Part shown: positions 6,365 through 62,617 of the stretch, piece by piece
Numbering within the stretch: position 1 is the first letter of the stretch
Layout: every line of letters starts with the position of its first letter
Source: a phage
Length of the DNA stretch: 64,000 nucleotides
Direction: 5' to 3' (one strand)
Assembly: GCA_027262695.1 (NCBI GenBank)
Contig: GCA_027262695.1_4722.1
Notes under the pieces: generated by a model
The model's input: the letters and a program-made list of their open reading frames with translations, nothing else
Databases searched by the model: none
Told to the model about the DNA's origin: nothing
Program-made: the position numbers and the translations under genes

Positions 6365-7189
6365 TTAGTTGTTGTTTTCCGATAAGCTGATATAGTTAAA
6401 CGTACGATCGCGTAAACAGGCATAGCGCGGTAATGCGCTAAGGATGATCATCTTCAGCTGCATCGCAAGCGATGTGCGTTCTTCATCGGTCGCATCATCC
6501 CCCCATTTACCCGGTTTAACCTGGATGGGTTCCTGAGGATCCTGCGGAAAGATAAAACTCAACAGCAGGTAATCCGTGCGGAATTCCCATACCTCCCGTC
6601 CATCGCTATTGGTTTCTTTACGCAACGTGAACGGCTGACGCTCCGTGGTAGGATCCAACATCAGTGGACGACCACGAACAACCTCAAGTTTACGTGGGCT
6701 GACGAACGTTGTTCGTTCTGGAAGATGCTTTTCAACCTCGTCGGTATCTAACAAGAACAAAATGATATCATCAAAATGCTCGGGTGCGAACGTGTGTATT
6801 GGCTCACCGTCGGTGTAGGAACAGATCGCCTGGAGTATGGGTGTTTTATCCGAGAAGCTCTGGCATGACCCGCGCGTGATCGGTAAGGTATTCCAAAGAT
6901 GTTCTGTAGACAACTCCACCGGCACCAACGGCTGATCATCGATGAACACCACGCAGGTCATCCCAACAGGAATATGTCCGTCGTTATTCGGTTCGAAGAC
7001 CAAGCGAAGTTTACCGGTGATCAATGCTAACTCATCCGGCAGTAAACGATTCGCTGAACGCGCCAAACGGAATCCGGTTGCTTGGTGATACGGTTCGGGT
7101 TTATAACCACGGACAATAAGGGAAACCTCCGCAAGTTCGATGCTTACGAAGGCGTTTTTGATGTCCTTATTGTTCATCGTTAACGTCAT
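6365..7189 (-). CDS. hypothetical protein
   Basis: ORF track, 274 aa. Confidence 0.55.
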   Translation of the reverse strand: MTLTMNNKDIKNAFVSIELAEVSLIVRGYKPEPYHQATGFRLARSANRLLPDELALITGKLRLVFEPNNDGHIPVGMTCVVFIDDQPLVPVELSTEHLWNTLPITRGSCQSFSDKTPILQAICSYTDGEPIHTFAPEHFDDIILFLLDTDEVEKHLPERTTFVSPRKLEVVRGRPLMLDPTTERQPFTLRKETNSDGREVWEFRTDYLLLSFIFPQDPQEPIQVKPGKWGDDATDEERTSLAMQLKMIILSALPRYACLRDRTFNYISLSENNN

Positions 7190-8204
7190 TGTTCATTTTC
7201 TCCGTTGCAACAAATCGTTCAAGTTCATTCAGTAAACGTGCTTTTAACGTCGCATCCACGTCTGGTGCATGTTTATCACGGTACCATTCTGTTCCGTTGT
7301 ACTGTAAACTTACATGCCATGTGCCTAATGGACTATCTTCTGCCGCTGCGATGAAGTTCTTAACACCGGTTTTGGTTGGATACTTCATGATCGGCACGGC
7401 TTTATCTGGATCCATCAGTGTAAGATCCTGGAAGTTATAATCCAGAAGCGTCAACATGCGTTGCTTGCGTAATAACACCCCGCATTGCAGGATGGTAAAA
7501 TCGATTCCCCAGAAACGAAGTTTACCTCCTACGCCTATTGGCGTATGCCCACGATAAACCGCAAGATAGATTTCCCCTTTATCGGTTTCTTTGTTGTAGC
7601 CTGCGATGAATGCCGCGGTGATCAACGGTTGATCGCCTTTCGCTAAAAAAGCGGGATGGCTACGATACAACCAATCGCTACGGATCAAATCGGTAACCTG
7701 ACCTAAACGTGCGGTTGGTACCATCGTTGATCCTAAAGTTTCATCAACAGGAATCTGATAATACTCGAACAGAACCCCATCGATTTCTTCGGTTGCATAA
7801 GGCGTACGCTCTGGATCGTTAAGCACCTTACGAAGTTTCTCATCGATTTCGTTTACACGATCGTCATGCGCTTTCTCACGGCTTCCAACAACGAAAGCAA
7901 CCAGATTGCGTACACTTACGAAGACGTCATCTTTTTCGGTCTCGGTAAGATCTTCCGCATCAGGCATCGTTGTCCAGTGCAAAGGACCTTCTACCACCTT
8001 AAGCCACTTATCTTCACGTTCAGGATAAACAAACGGTTTATGAACAGGAACATCCGTGTGTTGAACACGTAACAGTAAATTGCATAACGGAGGTAATGTT
8101 TTCTCTAACGGTGGAACAATACCTGATGTAACAGCAATGACATAACGGTTAAGAACAAGAGAAGCGGAATAGGTAATGTTATCTAATCCTGGTAATTGAT
8201 CCAT
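7167..8204 (-). CDS. hypothetical protein
   Basis: ORF track, 345 aa; AAGGA RBS; preceded by an AT-rich intergenic region. Confidence 0.6.
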   Translation of the reverse strand: MDQLPGLDNITYSASLVLNRYVIAVTSGIVPPLEKTLPPLCNLLLRVQHTDVPVHKPFVYPEREDKWLKVVEGPLHWTTMPDAEDLTETEKDDVFVSVRNLVAFVVGSREKAHDDRVNEIDEKLRKVLNDPERTPYATEEIDGVLFEYYQIPVDETLGSTMVPTARLGQVTDLIRSDWLYRSHPAFLAKGDQPLITAAFIAGYNKETDKGEIYLAVYRGHTPIGVGGKLRFWGIDFTILQCGVLLRKQRMLTLLDYNFQDLTLMDPDKAVPIMKYPTKTGVKNFIAAAEDSPLGTWHVSLQYNGTEWYRDKHAPDVDATLKARLLNELERFVATEKMNNDVNDEQ

Positions 8205-8420
8205 GATAGAAATCCTTATTGGTTTTGATCTGTTGTTTAATTAACATATTAAGTTTTAAAGAGGTTATGTTTTACGTCATATTCGATGTTTGTATTGATG
8301 AATTAGAATACTTGTATTTTTAAGCGAGTATAATAATAGTAATAAACCTAAATTAATCTCTGTTACTTACTGTTCTATCTAAAGATAGTAAACTGATATA
8401 ATGCTCCCCACCACCCCATT
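8205..8420 (-). promoter_or_regulatory. AT-rich intergenic region, putative promoter for the 7167..8204 operon
   Basis: Long AT-rich stretch with several TATAAT-like boxes between two minus-strand genes. Confidence 0.3.
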
Positions 8421-8432
8421 CTCCCAAGTAAT

Positions 8433-8488
8433 ACTGGCCTACCGGCCCTCTCCTTTTTAGGGAGAGAGGTAAGCAACCAGTATTGCTC
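8433..8488. other. nested stem-loop element (outer 11-bp stem with G-U wobble, inner CTCTCC/GGAGAG hairpin)
   Basis: AGTAATACTGG...CCAGTATTGCT enclose CCCTCTCC-TTTTTA-GGGAGAGAGG; lies downstream of gene 8542..8892. Confidence 0.3.
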
Positions 8489-8541
8489 AAATGAATAAGC
8501 AAAGCTGTAGAGATTTACTGCCGCTTTACCTCTCTTATCTA

Positions 8542-8892
8542 TCAACACCCTATCTCTGCATAAACCTTCAATGCTTCGAATGCATCTCCCTTCTTTGTCA
8601 TCGTCTTGTACAGACGTGATTGAGCAATGATTTTTACCCATTGCTTAGGATCATGAAAATTCACGTTTTCAAAATGAGGTGTGTGATCATCATTGAATTT
8701 GATGTACCCTAAAAGCAATCCGGTATGAGAACCTCGACGGAGTTCGATATGGGGTTTGAAGAAGATACGATTGTCTGGTGGATACCAGCTTACCGTGTAG
8801 TAATGGTTTCCCGAAACAACGATTTCATGAACCTGTTTTGTTTCGTCATCGATAACCGCGTTCACGCAAGGAATCATTAATTTTTGAAGCAT
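8542..8892 (-). CDS. hypothetical protein
   Basis: ORF track, 116 aa. Confidence 0.5.
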   Translation of the reverse strand: MLQKLMIPCVNAVIDDETKQVHEIVVSGNHYYTVSWYPPDNRIFFKPHIELRRGSHTGLLLGYIKFNDDHTPHFENVNFHDPKQWVKIIAQSRLYKTMTKKGDAFEALKVYAEIGC

Positions 8893-9476
8893 GGGACATA
8901 AACCTCCATCAACATCGCATAAAGCGCACCAAGCCCGTGTAGGACTCGGTTAGGGGCAAAGGTAGGTGTATAGCAGACTTGTTCAGTGGGCGCTTGCTGA
9001 CGCAGATCGAGAGGATCCCCGTTGATAAGCATTTGCAGAAGGTCGGTGTCGTCCTGTAAGGTATCTTCATCGATATATGCATCAACACAGAGCAGTCGAT
9101 GTAACTGTTCGGGTTTAATTGAAATGCCGACAACCATGCAGTTGTTGTAGGTCGCGTTGTCCAGAAAGAAGTGAATAACCCCTGCCTGCGGATCGCCGCT
9201 GTAATGTAGCCATTGAGTAAAACCCGCCGACATCATCCACAACGGGTTATGTTGCAATGCGCCGACAACACGGGTTTCGAATTCCAAACCGAACTTCTGG
9301 AAGATCGCGCCCATCTGGAAACGATCTTCATCCAAACGGTAACGGAAGATACAGGCATCAGAGCCTGTTGAGTTATCATACACCGAAAGATACCCACGAT
9401 GGATTTCCACGGTAACGTTGTTATCATTAAGCGTAGCGCTTGCGACGCCGTTAGCAAAGGTTGGTACAAAGCTCAT
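8877..9476 (-). CDS. hypothetical protein
   Basis: ORF track, 199 aa; AAGGA RBS. Confidence 0.55.
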   Translation of the reverse strand: MSFVPTFANGVASATLNDNNVTVEIHRGYLSVYDNSTGSDACIFRYRLDEDRFQMGAIFQKFGLEFETRVVGALQHNPLWMMSAGFTQWLHYSGDPQAGVIHFFLDNATYNNCMVVGISIKPEQLHRLLCVDAYIDEDTLQDDTDLLQMLINGDPLDLRQQAPTEQVCYTPTFAPNRVLHGLGALYAMLMEVYVPCFKN

Positions 9477-10024: not shown

Positions 10025-10135
10025 TACGTTGCCTTCCGCGGATATAATCATGAAGGTAATGTAGGTTTATTTTAATCTCCATTTCGCGATGATATGACAG
10101 TCTTTATTACGTTTACCATCTGAGGGAGCATGCTC

Positions 10136-14235: not shown

Positions 14236-15975
14236 TTATGCGACTTTACTAATAACGACGGCAGTGATACCGAGATGGAGGTCAACGCCGTTCTGTACTT
14301 TAATCCAGCGGATATACAGGTTAGCGTTATCCTGTCCCGTACCACCTGGGACGTTATTGTTCTTATTCCATTGTGAGATTTCGAAACGTTTCTGCACGTT
14401 AGGGCCAACCATGATTTCAAAGTGGGTTGGTTCTGGTGCTTTCGATTCCGTCTTCTCAAGATAAAGCGGATGGGTTGAGTAGTAAAGCTGATTCAACCAT
14501 TCACCCAGGTCTGAGTGTTTGTTCGTCAAGTCAACGTACGCGTTACCGGCAACGTCGTAAGAGAACAACGCTTTCGTATTACGGCCGTATACATCCGTTG
14601 TTGTTGGGGTGGTCTGCGAACTGAAGGTAACTGTCCAGTAATCACCGGATGTTGCCGAACCGGCTTGCAGCAACGTCATGCGAATCGTCTGTGTATGACG
14701 TACACGTTTGTAAACGGTAGGGTCGACTTCATCCAGCCAGATGTTGTACGCAAACTCTTGAGGTTGTCCGTATTTCTTCGGACTGAACTCAGGACTGTTC
14801 AACGCTAATTGGACTTTGTCGGTAACGTTGTAATACCGTTCACGGTCAACGTTATACAGCCAGAACACCAGCTCGTAACCCACAGCGTCAGATACCCATT
14901 GCGGATAACAGAACAGCTTAACGCTATACGCGCCCTTCGCTTCTTTCGAAACGACGGTGTATGGAACACTGATGTGTTTCACTGCACCTGGTAATGCGTA
15001 GGAGGTATCTTCATCATCATCCAGGTAGTAGTGCAGCGCCAGTGGGTGTTTGCTGTTAATGACCTGAGACGTGAAGACGTTAAGGCCATCCAACACAACC
15101 TTGTTCCCGGTAACAGGCCAGTACTTGATAGAACCGTCGCTGTACGTGACTTCTGCCTGAAGGTCGACGGAGTCCAAGTTGACGTTGATTGGTAGCTCAA
15201 GGAGTTTGGAATCGCTGCTGCTAAGCCAGGTCGATTTCAGTCGTACTCCGTCTTCCAGGATGTACTTAATACCTTGGTCTGGTGTACGGACATAATCAGT
15301 AATACGAACGATCATGCGTTTCATCGACAACGGTTGTGGACCATCACCGTAACCGACCACCATCACTTGTTCGAAGTCTTCTACAGGTTTAATGCAGTAG
15401 CCTTCACGGGGTGCCCAGATGGCTTTGTTCGTTCCGTCTTTATAAGCGATAAGCTGACAGGGAATAAAATCGCTGATCTTATTACCGCTATTATCATACA
15501 TCGCACTGATGATTTCGCCGTTGGCGCTGATATCAGAACCACGGAAGACCGCAATACGTCGAATATCCGAACCGTGTAGATGGAAACGACGGTCGATGTT
15601 CATCGTTGCTGGAATAGTGTTCGTATTAATCAATACCCGCCAGGTATCGTACGACCAGGTTGGGTCGATCCCTTCAAAGGTTGTTGTTTCATCACCTTTG
15701 CCATCGAAGGGCGCTGACAATTGACCAATGAGCTTAAGGGTACTCAGTTTCGTTCTGTCATCAACAGCGATAACCCGATACACCGCGTTGGTGTCCCAGT
15801 CTTCAACTTTATCATCCACGTTAGGAACATAAAGCTTCCAGTCTTCTTCAACACCATTGTAGATCTCTTTATACGCATATGTGGTATAGCGTCTGTCGAG
15901 ATCCTGAATAGCGAGTTTATCCGGATGCTGTTGTGCGTAAAGCACCGGATTGGTAATCTCTCTTCCCATTATCAC
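14236..15975 (-). CDS. hypothetical protein (possibly virion structural)
   Basis: ORF track, 579 aa; adjacent to terL and overlaps the next gene by 4 nt. Confidence 0.55.
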   Translation of the reverse strand: MIMGREITNPVLYAQQHPDKLAIQDLDRRYTTYAYKEIYNGVEEDWKLYVPNVDDKVEDWDTNAVYRVIAVDDRTKLSTLKLIGQLSAPFDGKGDETTTFEGIDPTWSYDTWRVLINTNTIPATMNIDRRFHLHGSDIRRIAVFRGSDISANGEIISAMYDNSGNKISDFIPCQLIAYKDGTNKAIWAPREGYCIKPVEDFEQVMVVGYGDGPQPLSMKRMIVRITDYVRTPDQGIKYILEDGVRLKSTWLSSSDSKLLELPINVNLDSVDLQAEVTYSDGSIKYWPVTGNKVVLDGLNVFTSQVINSKHPLALHYYLDDDEDTSYALPGAVKHISVPYTVVSKEAKGAYSVKLFCYPQWVSDAVGYELVFWLYNVDRERYYNVTDKVQLALNSPEFSPKKYGQPQEFAYNIWLDEVDPTVYKRVRHTQTIRMTLLQAGSATSGDYWTVTFSSQTTPTTTDVYGRNTKALFSYDVAGNAYVDLTNKHSDLGEWLNQLYYSTHPLYLEKTESKAPEPTHFEIMVGPNVQKRFEISQWNKNNNVPGGTGQDNANLYIRWIKVQNGVDLHLGITAVVISKVA

Positions 15976-22624: not shown

Positions 22625-22644
22625 CGTAAAAAAAAAAAATATTA

Positions 22645-22684
22645 CATCCTCCTTCCCTAGCCATCAGGCCGGGGAAGGAGGATT
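22645..22684. terminator. bidirectional rho-independent terminator
   Basis: ATCCTCCTTCCC...GGGAAGGAGGAT hairpin flanked by an A12 run upstream and a T-rich run downstream, between convergent genes. Confidence 0.6.
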
Positions 22685-22693
22685 ATGGTTTAT

Positions 22694-24232: not shown

Positions 24233-24367
24233 GTTAATACTCCAATTAGTTTTTCGATCGATCAAAAGGATAAAATCAGAAGATTCATTTCTTCATAGGG
24301 AAAACACAAGTCGGTTAAGGTTTACTTCTCAAACTCCTTGCGTTCTATCAGTTAGGTAATATAGACC

Positions 24368-29550: not shown

Positions 29551-30651
29551 TTATTTGGCTTCGTTAAAATAAATATCAACGGCACGTTCCGTTGCGTAGA
29601 GAAGACCCAGATTCACGGTCCCTACCACTTCCGGTGAACCGATGATACGGTTAGCGATACTGGTGCCACTGAAGATAGCATCAAGGGTGTGCCCGTCTTC
29701 GGTTTTGTTCACACCATGACCCACGGAAGAGACAACGGATTTTGCCTGTGCTGCGAAGGTACCTTTATCCCCCATTCCCGCACCCAGGTCGTAACGCATG
29801 AAAATACGGATGGCGATCTGGTTCTCGCCTAACGGATTACCGTCTATTCTCACGTTACTGTTGTTGATGCGTCCCGTTGTTGCTTCGTTGAGTTTCAGTT
29901 CCTTAACGCGTTTAGCTCGCGCTTTATCCGCTTCACCCACAAGTGCTGCCATGGTTTCACTCATGTCTTCAATCTGGGCACGATACAACACATCGATCTG
30001 TACGACTTCACCATGCACGTCAGCCCGTGGGTTATACTGACTCATACGGCGTAACGCTTCAACCGCTTCCTGACTTTCATCGCTCAGATCGGTCGCAATC
30101 GGTTCTTCCAGTGTTGCCAGGATCGTCCGAGGTTCAACATGATCGCCGATTTTCACCAAACCACGAATGTTGAGATGAGCGTCAACAATGAGCGTACGAC
30201 TCTTAATCGATGGTGTTACGAGACGATCAGCGAGATTGTCGAAGATATACGAACTGTCCTCGTGCGTTTCTGGAATATCCAAAATACCAACCAAAGACAG
30301 AACGCCTGCGCGCCAAACCACCTGACCTGGGTTCCACCAATCCCGTTTGAAATAAAGACGATGGAATACCACTACATCCTGATCCTTAACGCGATCACCA
30401 ACTTTATAATCGGTAATGAGATCGTGAGGATAATACTTACCTGGTCCTTTCCCGATTATCGTACCGAGTTGGAAAACCTCTTCCCCTAATTCTGGATCGT
30501 CGTATTGTATCGTAAGCGCTGTTTTGGTGACCTTCTTCACAACACCATCGCCTTGAGCAGCTGCTGCGAAGAGTTTACCAACACGATGCGCGATAACAGT
30601 CTCACCACCTGTACGCCATGGTTGTACGTCGTAACCTTCAGCAGCTATCAT
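29551..30651 (-). CDS. RNA polymerase beta-subunit segment, 3' exon (GDK catalytic-region motif)
   Basis: 366 aa ORF; ...YDLGAGMGDKGTFAAQAKSVVS aligns to the E. coli rpoB GDKMAGRHGNKGVIS region, and IGDHVEPRTILATL / PRADVHGEVVQIDVLY align to upstream rpoB segments; the frame stays open upstream to a stop at 30796..30798, so the exon probably starts between 30652 and 30795. Confidence 0.6.
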   Translation of the reverse strand: MIAAEGYDVQPWRTGGETVIAHRVGKLFAAAAQGDGVVKKVTKTALTIQYDDPELGEEVFQLGTIIGKGPGKYYPHDLITDYKVGDRVKDQDVVVFHRLYFKRDWWNPGQVVWRAGVLSLVGILDIPETHEDSSYIFDNLADRLVTPSIKSRTLIVDAHLNIRGLVKIGDHVEPRTILATLEEPIATDLSDESQEAVEALRRMSQYNPRADVHGEVVQIDVLYRAQIEDMSETMAALVGEADKARAKRVKELKLNEATTGRINNSNVRIDGNPLGENQIAIRIFMRYDLGAGMGDKGTFAAQAKSVVSSVGHGVNKTEDGHTLDAIFSGTSIANRIIGSPEVVGTVNLGLLYATERAVDIYFNEAK

Positions 30652-31148
30652 GCGGTTGTGCTGTATACCTATAAATACGAGACGCTTTGGCGAAATCCAG
30701 CAAAATACAATTACTGTGCGTCTAGATTGTTCAGATAAGGTCGTTAATCTTATCCCGGTGGTGATGATAGGTGCATCACCAACCCGCTTGCGCTCTCACG
30801 CAAGAGCAGACTATATCACATCTCGTTTCAAACGGTGCTTCTTCAGCGCCTCAACGAGAGTTCACTTCTTCCCAGCGCATCCAGCGCCATTCTCTTATCC
30901 AAGGAGAATGCCTCACTCGAGGGGTACAGGGGGATGAATCCCTTAGTCGTTGAACCGTCACCCTAGAACGTTTCACAACGATCCTTAGGCGATTGGCTGC
31001 GGATTGTCCTTAAGCTATTATCTGTTTTATAACCATACCGTCTTTCTTTTCAGAATCCGTTTTGGTCGATAACAGCGATGGATGTCTTCGCAATTCAGTG
31101 AATCTCATCTACATGTCGCCATATAGACGGACCCTGCTATTAAAAGCG
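30652..31148 (-). ncRNA. group I self-splicing intron (boundaries approximate) in the RNAP beta gene
   Basis: Minus strand carries an R-like element GGTTCAACGACTAAGGGATT (30956..30937) and an S-like element TGATATAGTCT (30818..30808) that can form P7 (GACTA/TAGTC), followed by a P9-like hairpin (30806..30786); no ORF >60 aa in the correct orientation. Confidence 0.55.
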
Positions 31149-34100
31149 TTAATCATCTCTGTCGGCAGCAGGTACTGCAAGTGCCGATGTACTCATTATT
31201 GACGAGCTACCATCCGTTTTCTCGTCGTAAGGTTTTGTTTCACCGTATACAGACACGATGTTTGCGTTAGGTGCAAGATAAGCAGAGATACCTACATCGC
31301 CACTGTCCTTCGTACCTTCAGATACCACACCGATGTCTGACTTGTCGTATTCACGATCGCGTGCGCGTCGAAGCGATGTTTTCGAACGACCCCCGATACC
31401 GGTCATCGTTGCTTCTTCACCCTGCTTGATATCCAACATCGGGTTGGTTTCATCGATGACAATAGAAGCACTGTCGTCAAGGATTTGGTTCCAAACGCTC
31501 ACCGGACTGATTGAGATCTTCTGTCGGTTGCCTTGGCTGCTGTTCTCGTTTTGACGAATAGCACCAACCAGATCCTTATACACCAACTCAGCGAACTTAT
31601 CGTACGTTTTGAAGCGCTGGTAGTTCACATCGTTCGTGTTCGGTGCCCAATCATCCAGAAGCAGTTCAACAGCACGTAATAACAACATGGCGAAATCAGT
31701 CGGTTCACCCATGTTCTGCAATAATGTACGACTTACCGGGTCGACGAAAAGACGCTCCATGAGTTCAAGTTCGCGAAGATGACGAACCTTAAGACCTGCA
31801 CCATCGACAACGTTAAAATAGATATCCCGATTGTCAAAAGCGCCGCGAGCGTAACCGATGTAATTACGGTATTCGTTAAATCCACCCAACAACAATGTCG
31901 TCATTCGATCATCTTTACTGAAGATCAAACTTTCATCGTCGAAGCTTACCGCGAATTCATCCGATGCTAAGCCCATACGAGAACCACGAACTACCGTACG
32001 GTAGTTCGCTTTAAGATGTTCTAATAACGGAGTAAGTCCGCCTAGGTAACTTAGCACAACGCCAACCGGGATACGTACGCCCATGAACTCAAGGTCAGCG
32101 GCTTCGATAGGCATCTTCGCGGCATTGATACCGAAGAAATCAGGGAACGTTCCAACCGGCGTTGGGGTTTGATTCGGTTCGTAAACGTACAACTGATTCT
32201 GATTATCCACCGCCAGGAATTCACCGTTGGTGTTTTTGGCGAACGTTAAGAATCCACCCGCCAGCTGTTCGGTGAACAAATCTGCGCCGATATGTTCTGG
32301 CAACGTTTTGATATCGAGGCGTATGTCCCAATCCGCAAATTGAATTTGGGTGTAGTTACGCGCAAGCACAGCGAAGTAATACGGAACTTTGACAGCCGGA
32401 TCAAAGACGTTACCACGTTTTAAGGTGGTTAGCGGGGAGGTTTTATCGTAATACATCGCTGTGAGTTGACGTGTTAACCAACGACCAGCATTATTCACGA
32501 CACGCTCTGAACGTTTAACAAACACCTTACCGTAGGCGGTACTCAACGCAACTTCGGATGATGATACCTTTCTGATAGGTTTATCAACACGTTGTTTACG
32601 CATCCGGTATTTAATACCGTTAACGACATAAATACCGTCCTTACGAACCTTCGGTAACATCACCGGGAACGTCGTTGGAACACCACCCACCGGAGCCAGC
32701 TTGATCGTGATGACCTGGTAATCACCCATCACGTCAACAACATCTTCAACTTTATATCCGGTAACAGGATAGCCTGCTTGTTGCACTGCCACAACGGCCG
32801 CTGCGATGTCCTTTTGCATCACGTGTTCAACGTAATGTTTATCCCACACCGCAAGCGTCGATTTACATAGGCTCTTATCGACGATAACATCCGCTTCCGG
32901 CATAACCTTTGCTGGCGCTAATTTCGCGGCTTTTGGTTTAACCTCAACGTATTCAGCAAGCGTTAGTCCAGAACCGTCAGGTGCTTCAATTTCATGAATC
33001 GCGTCAGCGTTACGCATCGCGGCTTTATATTGAACGCCGCTTAATTGACCCGCATCCGCGAGGTCGCTCGCACGTACCAACACCGCATCGGATAACGACT
33101 GAATATATTCACCGTGCGTTTTCGGCAACGTTGCCGCATCGAAGACATCATCTTTTTCTTCCGGCACGTCGTCGTTGACGACCTCAAAGAGATCATCGGT
33201 GATGTCTTGATCTTCGTCCGGTTGAAAATCGGGCTGAACTTCAACGCCCGGGACTTCACGAACATCTTCGAACGCACGCTCAACAACCGCGTTCCATGCT
33301 TCAGCGTCGTCATCCTCATCCGATCCTCCGATCAACTCGCTTTCCAGTTCATCGGGGTCAAGAACGGTATCGAGATCCTCACCGTTAGGAAGCACGACAT
33401 CACGTTCATCGTACTCCGCATCGGGACTGTCTGCGAGAATATCACGCTCCTGACGAAGAACCTGCTCCTCTTCTTGTTTCTGTTCTTCTTCGTTGGCGCT
33501 CTGCGACCACAGACGGGTTACCGCCATCATCCAACGACGCTGGAATGTTTCAAGCGTTGTCTTATCAAGTTCCTCGCCTTCCTTCGCCAAACCCGAACGC
33601 CATTCTTCCATTAAACCAAGATTCAGGGTAAAGAAATAGACGCCGTCCGTAAATACAACGTTAAGCTTATCCAGCGAAGCACGATCCAATGACGCCATCG
33701 TACTGTTCTCACGATCGACACCTAACCAGCGGAAGAAGTCAAAGAACGACAGCTCCTCTGAGGTGGCAAAATTCATGAGGTTATTACGGGTTGGGGCTTG
33801 TTGTGTCGTACGCATCAACGATATCTTCGGTAACGTCGACGGGATACGGAATAACAAGAACTGCTGACGGTCGCTTTGCTTGGCGATCTCGTTTGCTTGC
33901 GTCCAAATCGTTTTACGCACGTTGAACCACTCATCATACCAACGTGTTAGCGTCGGACGATAGATGTACATGTGGTTAAGATGCGCATAGTTAGCCACGA
34001 TCTGGGCGTTGATGTTCTTCTCAACCTTGCTAAGATCGGTGACCAAACGAAAACGACGATGCGATGCACGGTAATCCAGTTTCGCACGCGGTAGCTGAAA

Positions 34101-34358
34101 TCGCTGATCGCGTCGAGGCGCGCCTTGCTTGGTTGCGAGGTCATCCGCGAACGATATCCAAAGCTGTGCACTTTCTTTGCTCAGCATGTATTCGTTTTCA
34201 GGAGGACCTATTAACGAAGGATCGGTTGCTGTGTAATGATAAACAGCATAACGCGGCAGCTGCAAAAGCTGCACCAAACGCAATCTAGGTGATAATAACT
34301 CTTGATAACGTCGTACACCGAATTGTCTGTAGTAATCAAGGTATTTAAGTTTTGCCAT
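31149..34358 (-). CDS. RNA polymerase beta-like subunit, N-terminal and middle part (5' exon), with a long N-terminal extension
   Basis: 1069 aa; C-terminal region NPMLDIKQGEEATMTGIGGRSK...VSVYGETKPY aligns to the rpoB fork segment [26 protein letters not shown]...LSVYAQTNEY; own ATG with a GGAG RBS; acidic low-complexity insert. Confidence 0.65.
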   Translation of the reverse strand: MAKLKYLDYYRQFGVRRYQELLSPRLRLVQLLQLPRYAVYHYTATDPSLIGPPENEYMLSKESAQLWISFADDLATKQGAPRRDQRFQLPRAKLDYRASHRRFRLVTDLSKVEKNINAQIVANYAHLNHMYIYRPTLTRWYDEWFNVRKTIWTQANEIAKQSDRQQFLLFRIPSTLPKISLMRTTQQAPTRNNLMNFATSEELSFFDFFRWLGVDRENSTMASLDRASLDKLNVVFTDGVYFFTLNLGLMEEWRSGLAKEGEELDKTTLETFQRRWMMAVTRLWSQSANEEEQKQEEEQVLRQERDILADSPDAEYDERDVVLPNGEDLDTVLDPDELESELIGGSDEDDDAEAWNAVVERAFEDVREVPGVEVQPDFQPDEDQDITDDLFEVVNDDVPEEKDDVFDAATLPKTHGEYIQSLSDAVLVRASDLADAGQLSGVQYKAAMRNADAIHEIEAPDGSGLTLAEYVEVKPKAAKLAPAKVMPEADVIVDKSLCKSTLAVWDKHYVEHVMQKDIAAAVVAVQQAGYPVTGYKVEDVVDVMGDYQVITIKLAPVGGVPTTFPVMLPKVRKDGIYVVNGIKYRMRKQRVDKPIRKVSSSEVALSTAYGKVFVKRSERVVNNAGRWLTRQLTAMYYDKTSPLTTLKRGNVFDPAVKVPYYFAVLARNYTQIQFADWDIRLDIKTLPEHIGADLFTEQLAGGFLTFAKNTNGEFLAVDNQNQLYVYEPNQTPTPVGTFPDFFGINAAKMPIEAADLEFMGVRIPVGVVLSYLGGLTPLLEHLKANYRTVVRGSRMGLASDEFAVSFDDESLIFSKDDRMTTLLLGGFNEYRNYIGYARGAFDNRDIYFNVVDGAGLKVRHLRELELMERLFVDPVSRTLLQNMGEPTDFAMLLLRAVELLLDDWAPNTNDVNYQRFKTYDKFAELVYKDLVGAIRQNENSSQGNRQKISISPVSVWNQILDDSASIVIDETNPMLDIKQGEEATMTGIGGRSKTSLRRARDREYDKSDIGVVSEGTKDSGDVGISAYLAPNANIVSVYGETKPYDEKTDGSSSIMSTSALAVPAADRDD

Positions 34359-34548: not shown

Positions 34549-35198
34549 TTCGCCTCAGTTCGCTACGCTGAGACCGCCTGCATGGATACGTACATGACAG
34601 GCTGCTTGCACTTTCATGCAAGAGGAGACTATATCAAACCGGCAGCTTCACCTTCTCGATCGTATCGAGAATGCGGTGCTGAAGTATTCTTCAGCAGCAC
34701 CTGCTACGGTAACCTACACTTCGAAGACGCTTGTCCTCTACAGGGTGGTAAATCCCTTAGTCGTTGAACCTGCGTTGTTTCCCATTCTTGGTTGCAAGAA
34801 TGCCGTATTACTACGCAACAACCAGGCTGCTGATTGCCCATTGTCTCGCACCTTAGCACCGCTTACGCGGCTTTTCTTTCAGCCTAAGCCTCTTACGGAG
34901 GTAGTGCATCTCAACTGTTGTTTCTGCCTTTCGGCACCCCATGGGTCGTTGAGCTTTAGGGGTTCCCAGCAATTCGTAGGTTTTTCAAGCACTCCCTTTC
35001 GGGAATACCGGACAACTTCCCTTGAAAAAAGTCTTTATTTTTCAAGGACTTATCCCCGCCGAGTCCCTGGAGGTACGGGCTCGGAATGCAAACCGTTTCT
35101 ACGAACGATGCTTTTTGTTTCCAATCAGGGTATTCCCATGCGATATATCGTTCGTCAGTAATCGGTTCCCAATTACTATCAAGTTCTGTCTTGGGAGA
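34549..35198 (-). ncRNA. group I self-splicing intron (boundaries approximate) in the RNAP beta-prime gene
   Basis: Minus strand carries R-like GGTTCAACGACTAAGGGATT (34770..34751), S-like TGATATAGTCT (34636..34626) and a P9-like hairpin (34622..34605) that shows a compensatory pair change relative to the other intron. Confidence 0.55.
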
Positions 35199-45554: not shown

Positions 45555-45570
45555 TATTCGCCGCATAGAA

Positions 45571-45602
45571 CCCTCCTCCAACCCGTAAGGGAAGGAGGAG
45601 GG
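45571..45602 (+). terminator. terminator hairpin CCCTCCTCCAACCC-GTAA-GGGAAGGAGGAGGG
   Basis: Long GC stem with a GNRA (GTAA) tetraloop followed by TTTATGTT; the identical 32-mer recurs at 58419..58450. Confidence 0.6.
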
Positions 45603-45608
45603 TTTATG

Positions 45609-47851: not shown

Positions 47852-47875
47852 CCTCCATGACTGTTATCATGGAGG
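47852..47875 (+). promoter_or_regulatory. leader hairpin CCTCCATGA-CTGTTA-TCATGGAGG with a nearby T-tract upstream of gene 47918
   Basis: Perfect 9-bp stem with a T7 run about 18 nt downstream; overlaps a CTATATTAC box on the minus strand. Confidence 0.3.
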
Positions 47876-47917
47876 TAATATAGTCCTGATATTTTTTTCA
47901 ATACGGAGAATAGAATA

Positions 47918-53773: not shown

Positions 53774-53781
53774 CATAATAA

Positions 53782-53817
53782 CCCACCCTACTACCCCGTT
53801 AAGGGCGGTAGGGTGGG
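53782..53817. terminator. bidirectional terminator hairpin
   Basis: CCCACCCTAC...GTAGGGTGGG 10-bp stem with inner CCCCGTTAAGGG, between convergent genes; T-rich run follows on the plus strand. Confidence 0.55.
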
Positions 53818-53824
53818 ATAAGGT

Positions 53825-58412: not shown

Positions 58413-58418
58413 CATATT

Positions 58419-58450
58419 CCCTCCTCCAACCCGTAAGGGAAGGAGGAGGG
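58419..58450 (+). terminator. terminator hairpin, exact copy of the 45571..45602 element, followed by CTATGCCGTAAAG
   Basis: Identical 32-nt CCCTCCTCCAACCCGTAAGGGAAGGAGGAGGG directly after the stop of gene 57786..58412. Confidence 0.5.
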
Positions 58451-58481
58451 CTATGCCGTAAAGCAAAAAAAAAAAATGATA

Positions 58482-58514
58482 GTCACGAGCCCTCCAATGA
58501 AGGAGAGCCGTGAC
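58482..58514 (-). terminator. rho-independent terminator for minus-strand gene 58522..59223
   Basis: Minus strand: GTCACGGCTCTCC...GGAGGGCTCGTGAC hairpin followed by a T13 run. Confidence 0.55.
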
Positions 58515-58521
58515 CGTCAGT

Positions 58522-60948: not shown

Positions 60949-61098
60949 GATTGAAATCTCGCTGGCTTACTTCACTTAAGTAATATAGCCGTGAAAAATG
61001 TTGGATTAAGTTAAATACCGCAACCGCAGCTAATTTTATAGGCTTTTAGCCTAAACCAATCATCTTCGGAATCATCATCTTTGAAACAGGAATCTATC

Positions 61099-62564: not shown

Positions 62565-62568
62565 AAAC

Positions 62569-62600
62569 CATCCTCCCGACCCGTAAGGGAAGGGAGGATG
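62569..62600 (+). terminator. terminator-family hairpin CATCCTCCCGACCC-GTAA-GGGAAGGGAGGATG followed by AAATATGCCGTTAAACG
   Basis: Same CCCGTAAGGGAAGG core as the 45571 and 58419 elements; lies between convergent genes. Confidence 0.45.
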
Positions 62601-62617
62601 AAATATGCCGTTAAACG

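Follow-up and report, generated by a model that had tools for sequence, protein, structure and literature searches.

A strongly conserved, non-coding hairpin block appears to mark the boundary between two transcription units in jumbo phages related to Escherichia phage vB_EcoM_Goslar. The window, that is, the whole stretch of 64,000 nucleotides of phage DNA that was analyzed, contains a non-coding gap of 337 bp (8205-8541) inside a run of minus-strand genes, between the ORFs 7167..8204 and 8542..8892. Comparison with related genomes indicates that a block of about 130 nt in this gap (about 8373..8500, referred to as block B) is a real, strongly conserved and genus-specific non-coding block at a transcription-unit boundary. 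We tentatively read the gap as an early-operon boundary, in which the hairpin block is a non-canonical terminator or a 3'-end/processing structure and precedes a leader that has a conserved TATG start; the probability that we assign to this reading is about 40%.

In the proposed model, which follows the minus strand 5' to 3', a three-gene operon transcribed from an early promoter near 10060 would end at 8542, and a phiKZ-type intrinsic terminator, T1, would come next. The conserved block, with a nested stem-loop as its core, would then back up T1, its sense RNA being predicted to form an irregular hairpin at 8415-8499, and this hairpin may act as a second, non-canonical stop or as a structure that protects or processes the 3' end, leaving the early operon insulated from the next unit. 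A variable AT-rich spacer would lead from there to a conserved leader with a putative TATG start of the non-virion polymerase type and a Shine-Dalgarno sequence for the 345-aa gene. We favor this model on account of the terminator-like arms and the arrangement of an outer stem around an inner hairpin, the retention of the stem-loop where T1 has decayed, and the longer helix that is predicted for the sense RNA.

Goslar serves as the E. coli model for nucleus-forming jumbo phages, and its transcription signals have not yet been mapped; no end-mapped Goslar transcriptome was found in the literature. The present analysis yields a concrete transcription-unit boundary, in which early promoter, terminator, conserved hairpin block and leader can each be placed, and block B is one of a small number of non-coding blocks that are strictly conserved in this fast-evolving part of the genome, which is occupied by orphan genes. 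Elements of this kind are already known, as phage intergenic terminators, processing hairpins or candidate small RNAs. A mere boundary hairpin would be ordinary; a small RNA, or a terminator or insulator that needs no U-tail to work with the phage polymerases, would provide a usable part and add a regulatory layer.

The phage and the gap

Positions 7900-8900 of the window are 82.6% identical to Goslar, and across the 64 kb the coding DNA is 88.0% and the non-coding DNA 91.2% identical, which identifies the source, as far as nucleotide similarity can tell, as a phiKZ-like, nucleus-forming giant (jumbo) E. coli phage of the Goslar genus. Goslar-type phages, which are phiKZ-like, rely on RNA polymerases of their own for transcription (PMC7598289). 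Across the compared region, the window is identical to a metagenome contig, JACXXQ010000003.1 (L012), and window positions 8415-8535 correspond to about 185,960-186,100 in Goslar.

The gap is flanked on its downstream side by a 345-aa ORF (7167..8204, minus strand; homologue of Goslar_00207 / HOV27_gp228), the first gene of the downstream operon, and on its upstream side by a 116-aa ORF (8542..8892, minus strand; homologue of Goslar_00208 / HOV27_gp227), the last gene of the upstream three-gene operon. Neither protein had a match in Pfam or PHROG, and tblastn gave no match outside Goslar; by these searches, both are classed as orphans of the genus. The preliminary description had reported an AT-rich gap of 340 bp in the minus-strand run, and apart from the exact length this was borne out: GC is 0.245 at 8200-8399 versus about 0.45-0.48 in the flanks, and 0.34 over the full gap, and the homologous spot in Goslar ranks second for low GC among the 150-bp windows of the 237-kb genome. 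The same description had considered the ORF 8375..8641 to be of low quality, and it indeed runs into the 116-aa gene in a different frame and has no preserved counterpart in Goslar. Among small ORFs in the gap, only a plus-strand one of 19 aa (8401-8460), which has no Shine-Dalgarno sequence, is preserved, and no minus-strand one is.

Structure and stability of the nested stem-loop

Folding and inverted-repeat analysis placed the nested stem-loop at 8427..8487, in agreement with an earlier proposal of an 11-bp outer stem with one wobble around a CTCTCC/GGAGAG hairpin. In the outer stem, AGTAATACTGG (8427-8437) pairs with CCAGTATTGCT (8477-8487) over 11 nt (10 Watson-Crick pairs and one T-G pair), enclosing both a mini-hairpin, GGCC-TACC-GGCC (8436-8447), and the CTCTCC/GGAGAG inner hairpin (within 8445-8470). 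The 61-nt core folds with -29.2 kcal/mol on the plus strand and -26.5 kcal/mol on the minus strand, which ranks it in the top 0.17% (plus) and 0.41% (minus) of the 25,576 61-nt windows folded across the 64 kb. Its stability is of the same class as that of the terminator hairpins of this phage, and the windows that fold better are mainly those. Compared with dinucleotide shuffles, the segment 8412-8502 has z scores of -5.2 (plus strand) and -4.0 (minus strand).

The two strands differ in how the core is embedded. In plus-sense RNA, the 61-nt core stands alone and the fold is well defined, with a minimum-energy structure frequency of 0.29, an identical centroid, z scores of -4.8 to -5.2, and an outer-stem pair probability of 0.998 (0.82 on the minus strand); three G-U pairs occur on this strand only, and the outer-stem substitution C8477 to T keeps a G-U pair on the plus strand only. 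The last of these features counts against the boundary model, as does the fact that the plus-strand fold is the more unusual for its composition (z -5.2 vs -4.0). The plus-strand features favor the main rival reading, which we consider doubtful, namely that block B is a small-RNA gene in its own right, encoded on the plus strand and antisense to the run of genes. Such a gene would comprise a promoter region at about 8373-8402, a single-stranded C-rich 5' end at 8404-8425, the stem-loop as its body, and a bidirectional T1 as its end; the plus strand, however, lacks a U-tract after the stem-loop.

In minus-sense RNA only, the helix is predicted to continue into an extended irregular hairpin (8415..8499; 34 pairs, -37.8 kcal/mol, z = -4.0), in which the U-rich tail of T1 pairs with a G-rich tract and 13 pairs, 6 of them G-U, are added beyond the nested stem-loop; the centroid equals the minimum-energy fold. 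Because the minus-strand RNA gains this G-U-rich extension of the same helix, the G-U wobble does not settle the strand, and in the boundary reading the hairpin would work in minus-strand RNA, where it may terminate or stabilize transcripts.

Phage T7 carries intercistronic hairpins that are processed by RNase III. With its roughly 34 pairs and its internal loops, the minus-sense helix resembles such phage intercistronic sites in predicted size and shape, which is in line with block B belonging to the downstream operon, either in a long 5' leader or in a read-through transcript, and functioning as a cis-regulatory RNA, be it as a double-stranded site of the RNase III type that separates two mRNAs or as a 5' stabilizer or attenuator for the 345-aa gene. 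Like the T7 hairpins, the hairpin would be irregular, 60-90 nt long, interrupted by internal loops, strongly conserved and located between genes of the same strand; unlike T7, Goslar-type phages transcribe inside a protein shell, and the likeness is one of predicted fold. The conservation of both block B and the leader, with an intervening spacer that tolerates a 58-bp insertion, also fits a cis-acting RNA. Nevertheless, no promoter can be recognized upstream of the hairpin, because the T1 tail directly abuts it, and no known riboswitch or leader family matches. We regard this explanation as quite improbable. An alternative helix that would make block B a switch (8416-8425 with 8460-8469) came out about 7 kcal/mol worse, with a probability of < 0.01; a structural switch in block B is, by this modeling, unlikely.

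Rfam searches at permissive thresholds, of 1.8 kb and then of 206 nt, gave only chance-level microRNA matches (13-14 bits vs thresholds of 51-73); riboswitch, sRNA, ribozyme and leader families had no Rfam match, a result that speaks against a small RNA, and a tRNA/tmRNA search was empty.

Terminator T1 and the terminator family of the genus

The putative terminator of the upstream operon, T1 (8492..8535, minus strand), combines a hairpin with a phiKZ-type tail that fits the motif YTTATKYYGT. In the window, T1 is degenerate: only a weak hairpin at 8501-8527 (-11.5 kcal/mol, z = -0.9) precedes the tail GCTTATTCAT, while the nested stem-loop is retained. In Goslar-type genomes, T1 consists of a perfect hairpin of 10 bp, CCGTCTCGAG/CTCGAGACGG, with TTTATACTGT after it (-31 kcal/mol with flanks, z = -5.9). 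One of these genomes (L010) has a compensatory C-G to T-A change in the stem, and the loop ACAA is flipped to TTGT in L003 and reads ATAA in L013 and L024. With a strong terminator just upstream in the Goslar-type genomes, a second one is less needed, which counts against the boundary-hairpin model. The A-rich 5' flank and U-rich 3' flank that the Goslar-type T1 has on both strands would suit the end of a plus-strand small RNA, as would the position of block B, which stops just before a T1 whose sequence varies but whose structure stays.

T1 belongs to a wider context. The conserved intrinsic terminator of phiKZ has been described as BCCYCCCCHWWDGGGRRGGBYTTATKYYGT (Putzeys et al. 2024, PMC10914365), and Goslar has a terminator family of the form CCCTCYTCC-AACCCGTAAGGGAA-GGARGAGGG followed by TTATGCYGT, which motif agreement identifies as the same element. 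Copies in the window include 22625-22693, 45555-45608, 53774-53824, 58413-58521 and 62565-62617, and some copies are flanked by 12-nt runs of A or T.

The inner hairpin of block B, CCCTCTCC-TTTTTA-GGGAGAG (8446-8466), shares the phiKZ-type features of a C/Y-rich and a G/R-rich arm around a short A/T-rich loop. Its C/T-rich and G/A-rich arms (CCCTCTCC/GGGAGAG) are those of the terminator family of the genus, the 8-mer being intergenic in 10 of 11 copies in the Goslar genome. Further likenesses of the stem-loop to the phiKZ terminator are its intergenic position at the end of an operon, its comparable stability, and the enclosure of the hairpin by an A/U-rich outer stem, as is the case for the ACGGCATAA...TTATGCCGT flanks of Goslar terminators. 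In contrast to that terminator, the stem-loop has no TTAT(K)YYGT tail, carries the extra mini-hairpin GGCC-TACC-GGCC and 7-nt internal loops, is present in single copy with its own conserved flanks, and lies downstream of a genuine terminator in most genomes. The YTTATKYYGT tail was absent 3' of the stem-loop on both strands, where the plus strand continues with TAAGCAACC and the minus strand with CCGGTAGGCC; having neither a TTAT nor a U-rich tail on either strand, the stem-loop is therefore not a canonical member of the terminator family.

Conservation of block B among relatives

Ten genomes were obtained by DNA-pattern and protein-anchored searches, seven of which were used in the alignment. 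They fall into a Goslar type (n = 7; Goslar, L002, L003, L010, L011, L013 and L024) and a window type (n = 3; the window, identical to L012, together with L025 and L026). Block B is invariant in the seven Goslar-type genomes, in which 50-80% of the flanking coding columns are invariant (20-50% vary). The two types differ at about 7 positions of the block, and L025 and L026 share one further change, C8406 to T. Conservation in relatives had been set beforehand as a test of the stem-loop, and the structure is kept in every relative found, nearly unchanged across the ten genomes. Only two haplotypes of the stem-loop exist among them, in which no pair has changed on both sides and a few have changed on one side, to G-U, and for this reason covariation or compensatory change is not seen. 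Across the whole genome, 16% of 120-bp windows reach or exceed the similarity to Goslar that block B shows; judged by alignment, the block is exceptional relative to its fast-evolving neighborhood (flanks 79% identical), not relative to the whole genome.

Homologues appear to be confined to the genus. A sensitive blastn search of 50,697 phage records and of E. coli genomes returned none outside it, pattern scans of viral, metagenome and genome sequences and protein-anchored searches returned Goslar-genus genomes only, and three further candidates (L005, L006 and L014) proved to be chance matches. Within the genome, nhmmer and blastn-short found no paralogues of block B; the sole notable match was a 19-nt terminator-arm stretch. 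This stretch concerns a tract at 8404..8425 whose plus strand is rich in C and whose minus strand is rich in G. Its G4Hunter score (1.84) is the maximum for the window, and it matches one arm of the terminator between Goslar_00190 and Goslar_00191 at 18 of 19 bases. One of the Goslar-type relatives, L024 (GCA_007256055.1), is a 34.6-kb phage contig in an assembly of Salmonella enterica Typhimurium, which could reflect contamination or be a hint, from contig provenance, of a wider host range.

Conservation extends 55 nt beyond the hairpin (8373-8414), and this is left unexplained by the boundary model. The extension includes a perfect 6-2-6 palindrome, CTATCTAAAGATAG (8375..8388), followed by a conserved TATAAT (8397-8402, plus strand). 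A variable AT-rich spacer separates block B from the leader and contains a 58-bp AT-rich insertion (8284..8341) that is restricted to the window, L025 and L026; the insertion was considered as a duplicate of block B, and the similarity was not significant (204 of 300 shuffles scored equally well).

The palindrome, the strictness of conservation at the level of sequence and not of structure only, and the location at the second most AT-rich spot of the genome, adjoining inverted repeats, would all suit an element that acts as DNA, such as a binding platform for a phage protein, formed by the palindrome or a cruciform-prone repeat, or a replication or packaging signal that uses an easily melted AT-rich stretch. 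We hold this to be very improbable. The palindrome is unique in the genome, but palindromes of its type are common (86 in Goslar) and expected by chance; moreover, the gap has no iterons or repeated boxes, cumulative GC skew does not turn there, and conservation within the gap is lowest in its AT-rich part. A replication origin at the gap is unlikely in view of the missing iterons and skew turn, and a far better origin-like region exists at 14972-15825 of Goslar (L015), an 854-bp gap that holds the most AT-rich spot of the genome and many AGATAA(A/C) and TTATCC repeats and that looks like a replication origin.

Promoter signals around and within the gap

The whole Goslar genome was scanned for recurrent intergenic motifs, and an early-promoter motif, TTTCACGgCTAYATTACYTnnGTGA, was found at 13 strong sites, all upstream of genes, one of which is chmA (chimallin). 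The published phiKZ early-promoter consensus is TATATTAC (PMC7058600), and the motif of the Goslar genus agrees with the early promoters tabulated for phiKZ, EL and 201phi2-1 (PMC7058600), which are read by the virion RNA polymerase. Copies in the window, all on the minus strand, are located at 10052-10064, 24356-24364, 47875-47883 and 60980-60988. The first of these, outside the gap, has the phiKZ-type core CTACATTACCTTC (10052..10064, minus strand; Goslar site 187638-), and by motif and gene order this promoter near 10060 is assigned to the three-gene operon that ends at the gap.

The preliminary description had interpreted the gap as a possible promoter cluster on the strength of TATAAT-like boxes. 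Two exact plus-strand copies are present, at 8329-8334 and 8397-8402, and the interpretation as promoters did not hold up. These phages use their own RNA polymerases, the first box lies within the 58-bp insertion of window-type genomes, and TATAAT is not enriched in Goslar intergenic DNA, which contains 7 of 76 copies and makes up 9.4% of the genome. The second box is a perfect -10 element preceded by TG in the window only, with a -35 element of at best 2/6 at 16-18 bp spacing. A sigma-70 scan found no promoter in the gap, and together with the lack of enrichment this means that the TATAAT boxes are no promoter indication here. The early motif is likewise absent from the gap (CTAYATTAC core, upstream TTTCACG and downstream GTGA); the best match, CCAGTATTACTTGGGAG at 8434(-), mismatches the invariant TA (two invariant positions) and has a score for which about 0.3 chance matches are expected in DNA of the length of the gap and which 174-283 of 474,000 genome positions reach. 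When 115 upstream regions were searched for a second class of promoter, only terminator tails and Shine-Dalgarno motifs emerged.

These results bear on the plus-strand small-RNA gene introduced above. Block B has gene-like limits, in that it starts about 36 nt before a plausible start lying about 7 nt past the conserved TATAAT, and phiKZ and 201phi2-1 do produce short intergenic and 5'UTR-derived RNAs. Nevertheless, the promoter of neither phage polymerase is present (no early motif and no suitably placed TATG), TATAAT is a signal of the host type, and when the C-rich tract was examined for anti-Shine-Dalgarno targeting, its pairing with translation-initiation regions of the phage did not exceed that of shuffled seeds. 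Compared with the short RNAs of phiKZ and 201phi2-1 (PMC10914365, PMC11512511), block B is alike in phage family, predicted RNA size (about 70-140 nt), intergenic terminator-adjacent site and conservation. It differs in that those RNAs are defined by mapped 5' and 3' ends, whereas block B is known from sequence alone, and its sequence resembles neither theirs nor that of any phage outside the genus. A more specific proposal, namely that block B encodes a genus-specific, structured small RNA, in the simplest case the plus-strand antisense one with its single-stranded C-rich 5' end, that is transcribed from an undescribed class of phage-polymerase promoter and acts in trans during infection, appears unlikely to us. 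Of the earlier suggestions for the stem-loop, a termination or processing structure and a small non-coding RNA both stand as the leading readings, to which its placement in a regulatory gap at an operon boundary is now added.

The leader of the 345-aa gene

Under the boundary model, the next transcription unit would begin in a second conserved segment, block A, which the alignment places at 8153..8283 (minus strand) and which covers the leader (8205..8283) and the first codons of the 345-aa gene. The leader contains a box of a recurrent palindromic type, TTACGTCA (8272-8279), a Shine-Dalgarno sequence, AAGGA (8217..8213), and a TATG (8248..8245, G at 8245) that lies 41 nt ahead of the ATG and is present in 7 of 7 genomes. 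In phiKZ, the late promoter used by the non-virion polymerase is TATG, with the start at G, and the conserved copy may be a transcription start site. Against the boundary model, TATG alone is low in information, about one per strand being expected by chance in DNA of the size of the gap.

The palindromic boxes follow the pattern TKACGTMA (TGACGTCA, TTACGTAA) and recur in 5' leaders of Goslar, for example 39 nt upstream of the chmA start; from this recurrence, they may be a candidate binding site of a phage regulator. A further contig, L027 (Logan contig ERR13252275_158466), begins 39 nt upstream of the 345-aa gene, 2 nt past the G of the conserved TATG, which may be a coincidence.

Group I introns in the window

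Two group I introns lie elsewhere in the window. The first, at 30787-31153 (minus strand; Rfam RF00028, 51 bits), has a part without Goslar counterpart (30938-31148) and appears to split the homologue of Goslar_00228 into the ORFs 31149..34358 and 29551..30651; since Goslar_00228 is a single gene that is apparently split in the window, this intron looks like a lineage-specific gain. The second, at 34605-35037 (minus strand, 58 bits), corresponds to the Intron_gpI annotated in Goslar at 211817-212245.
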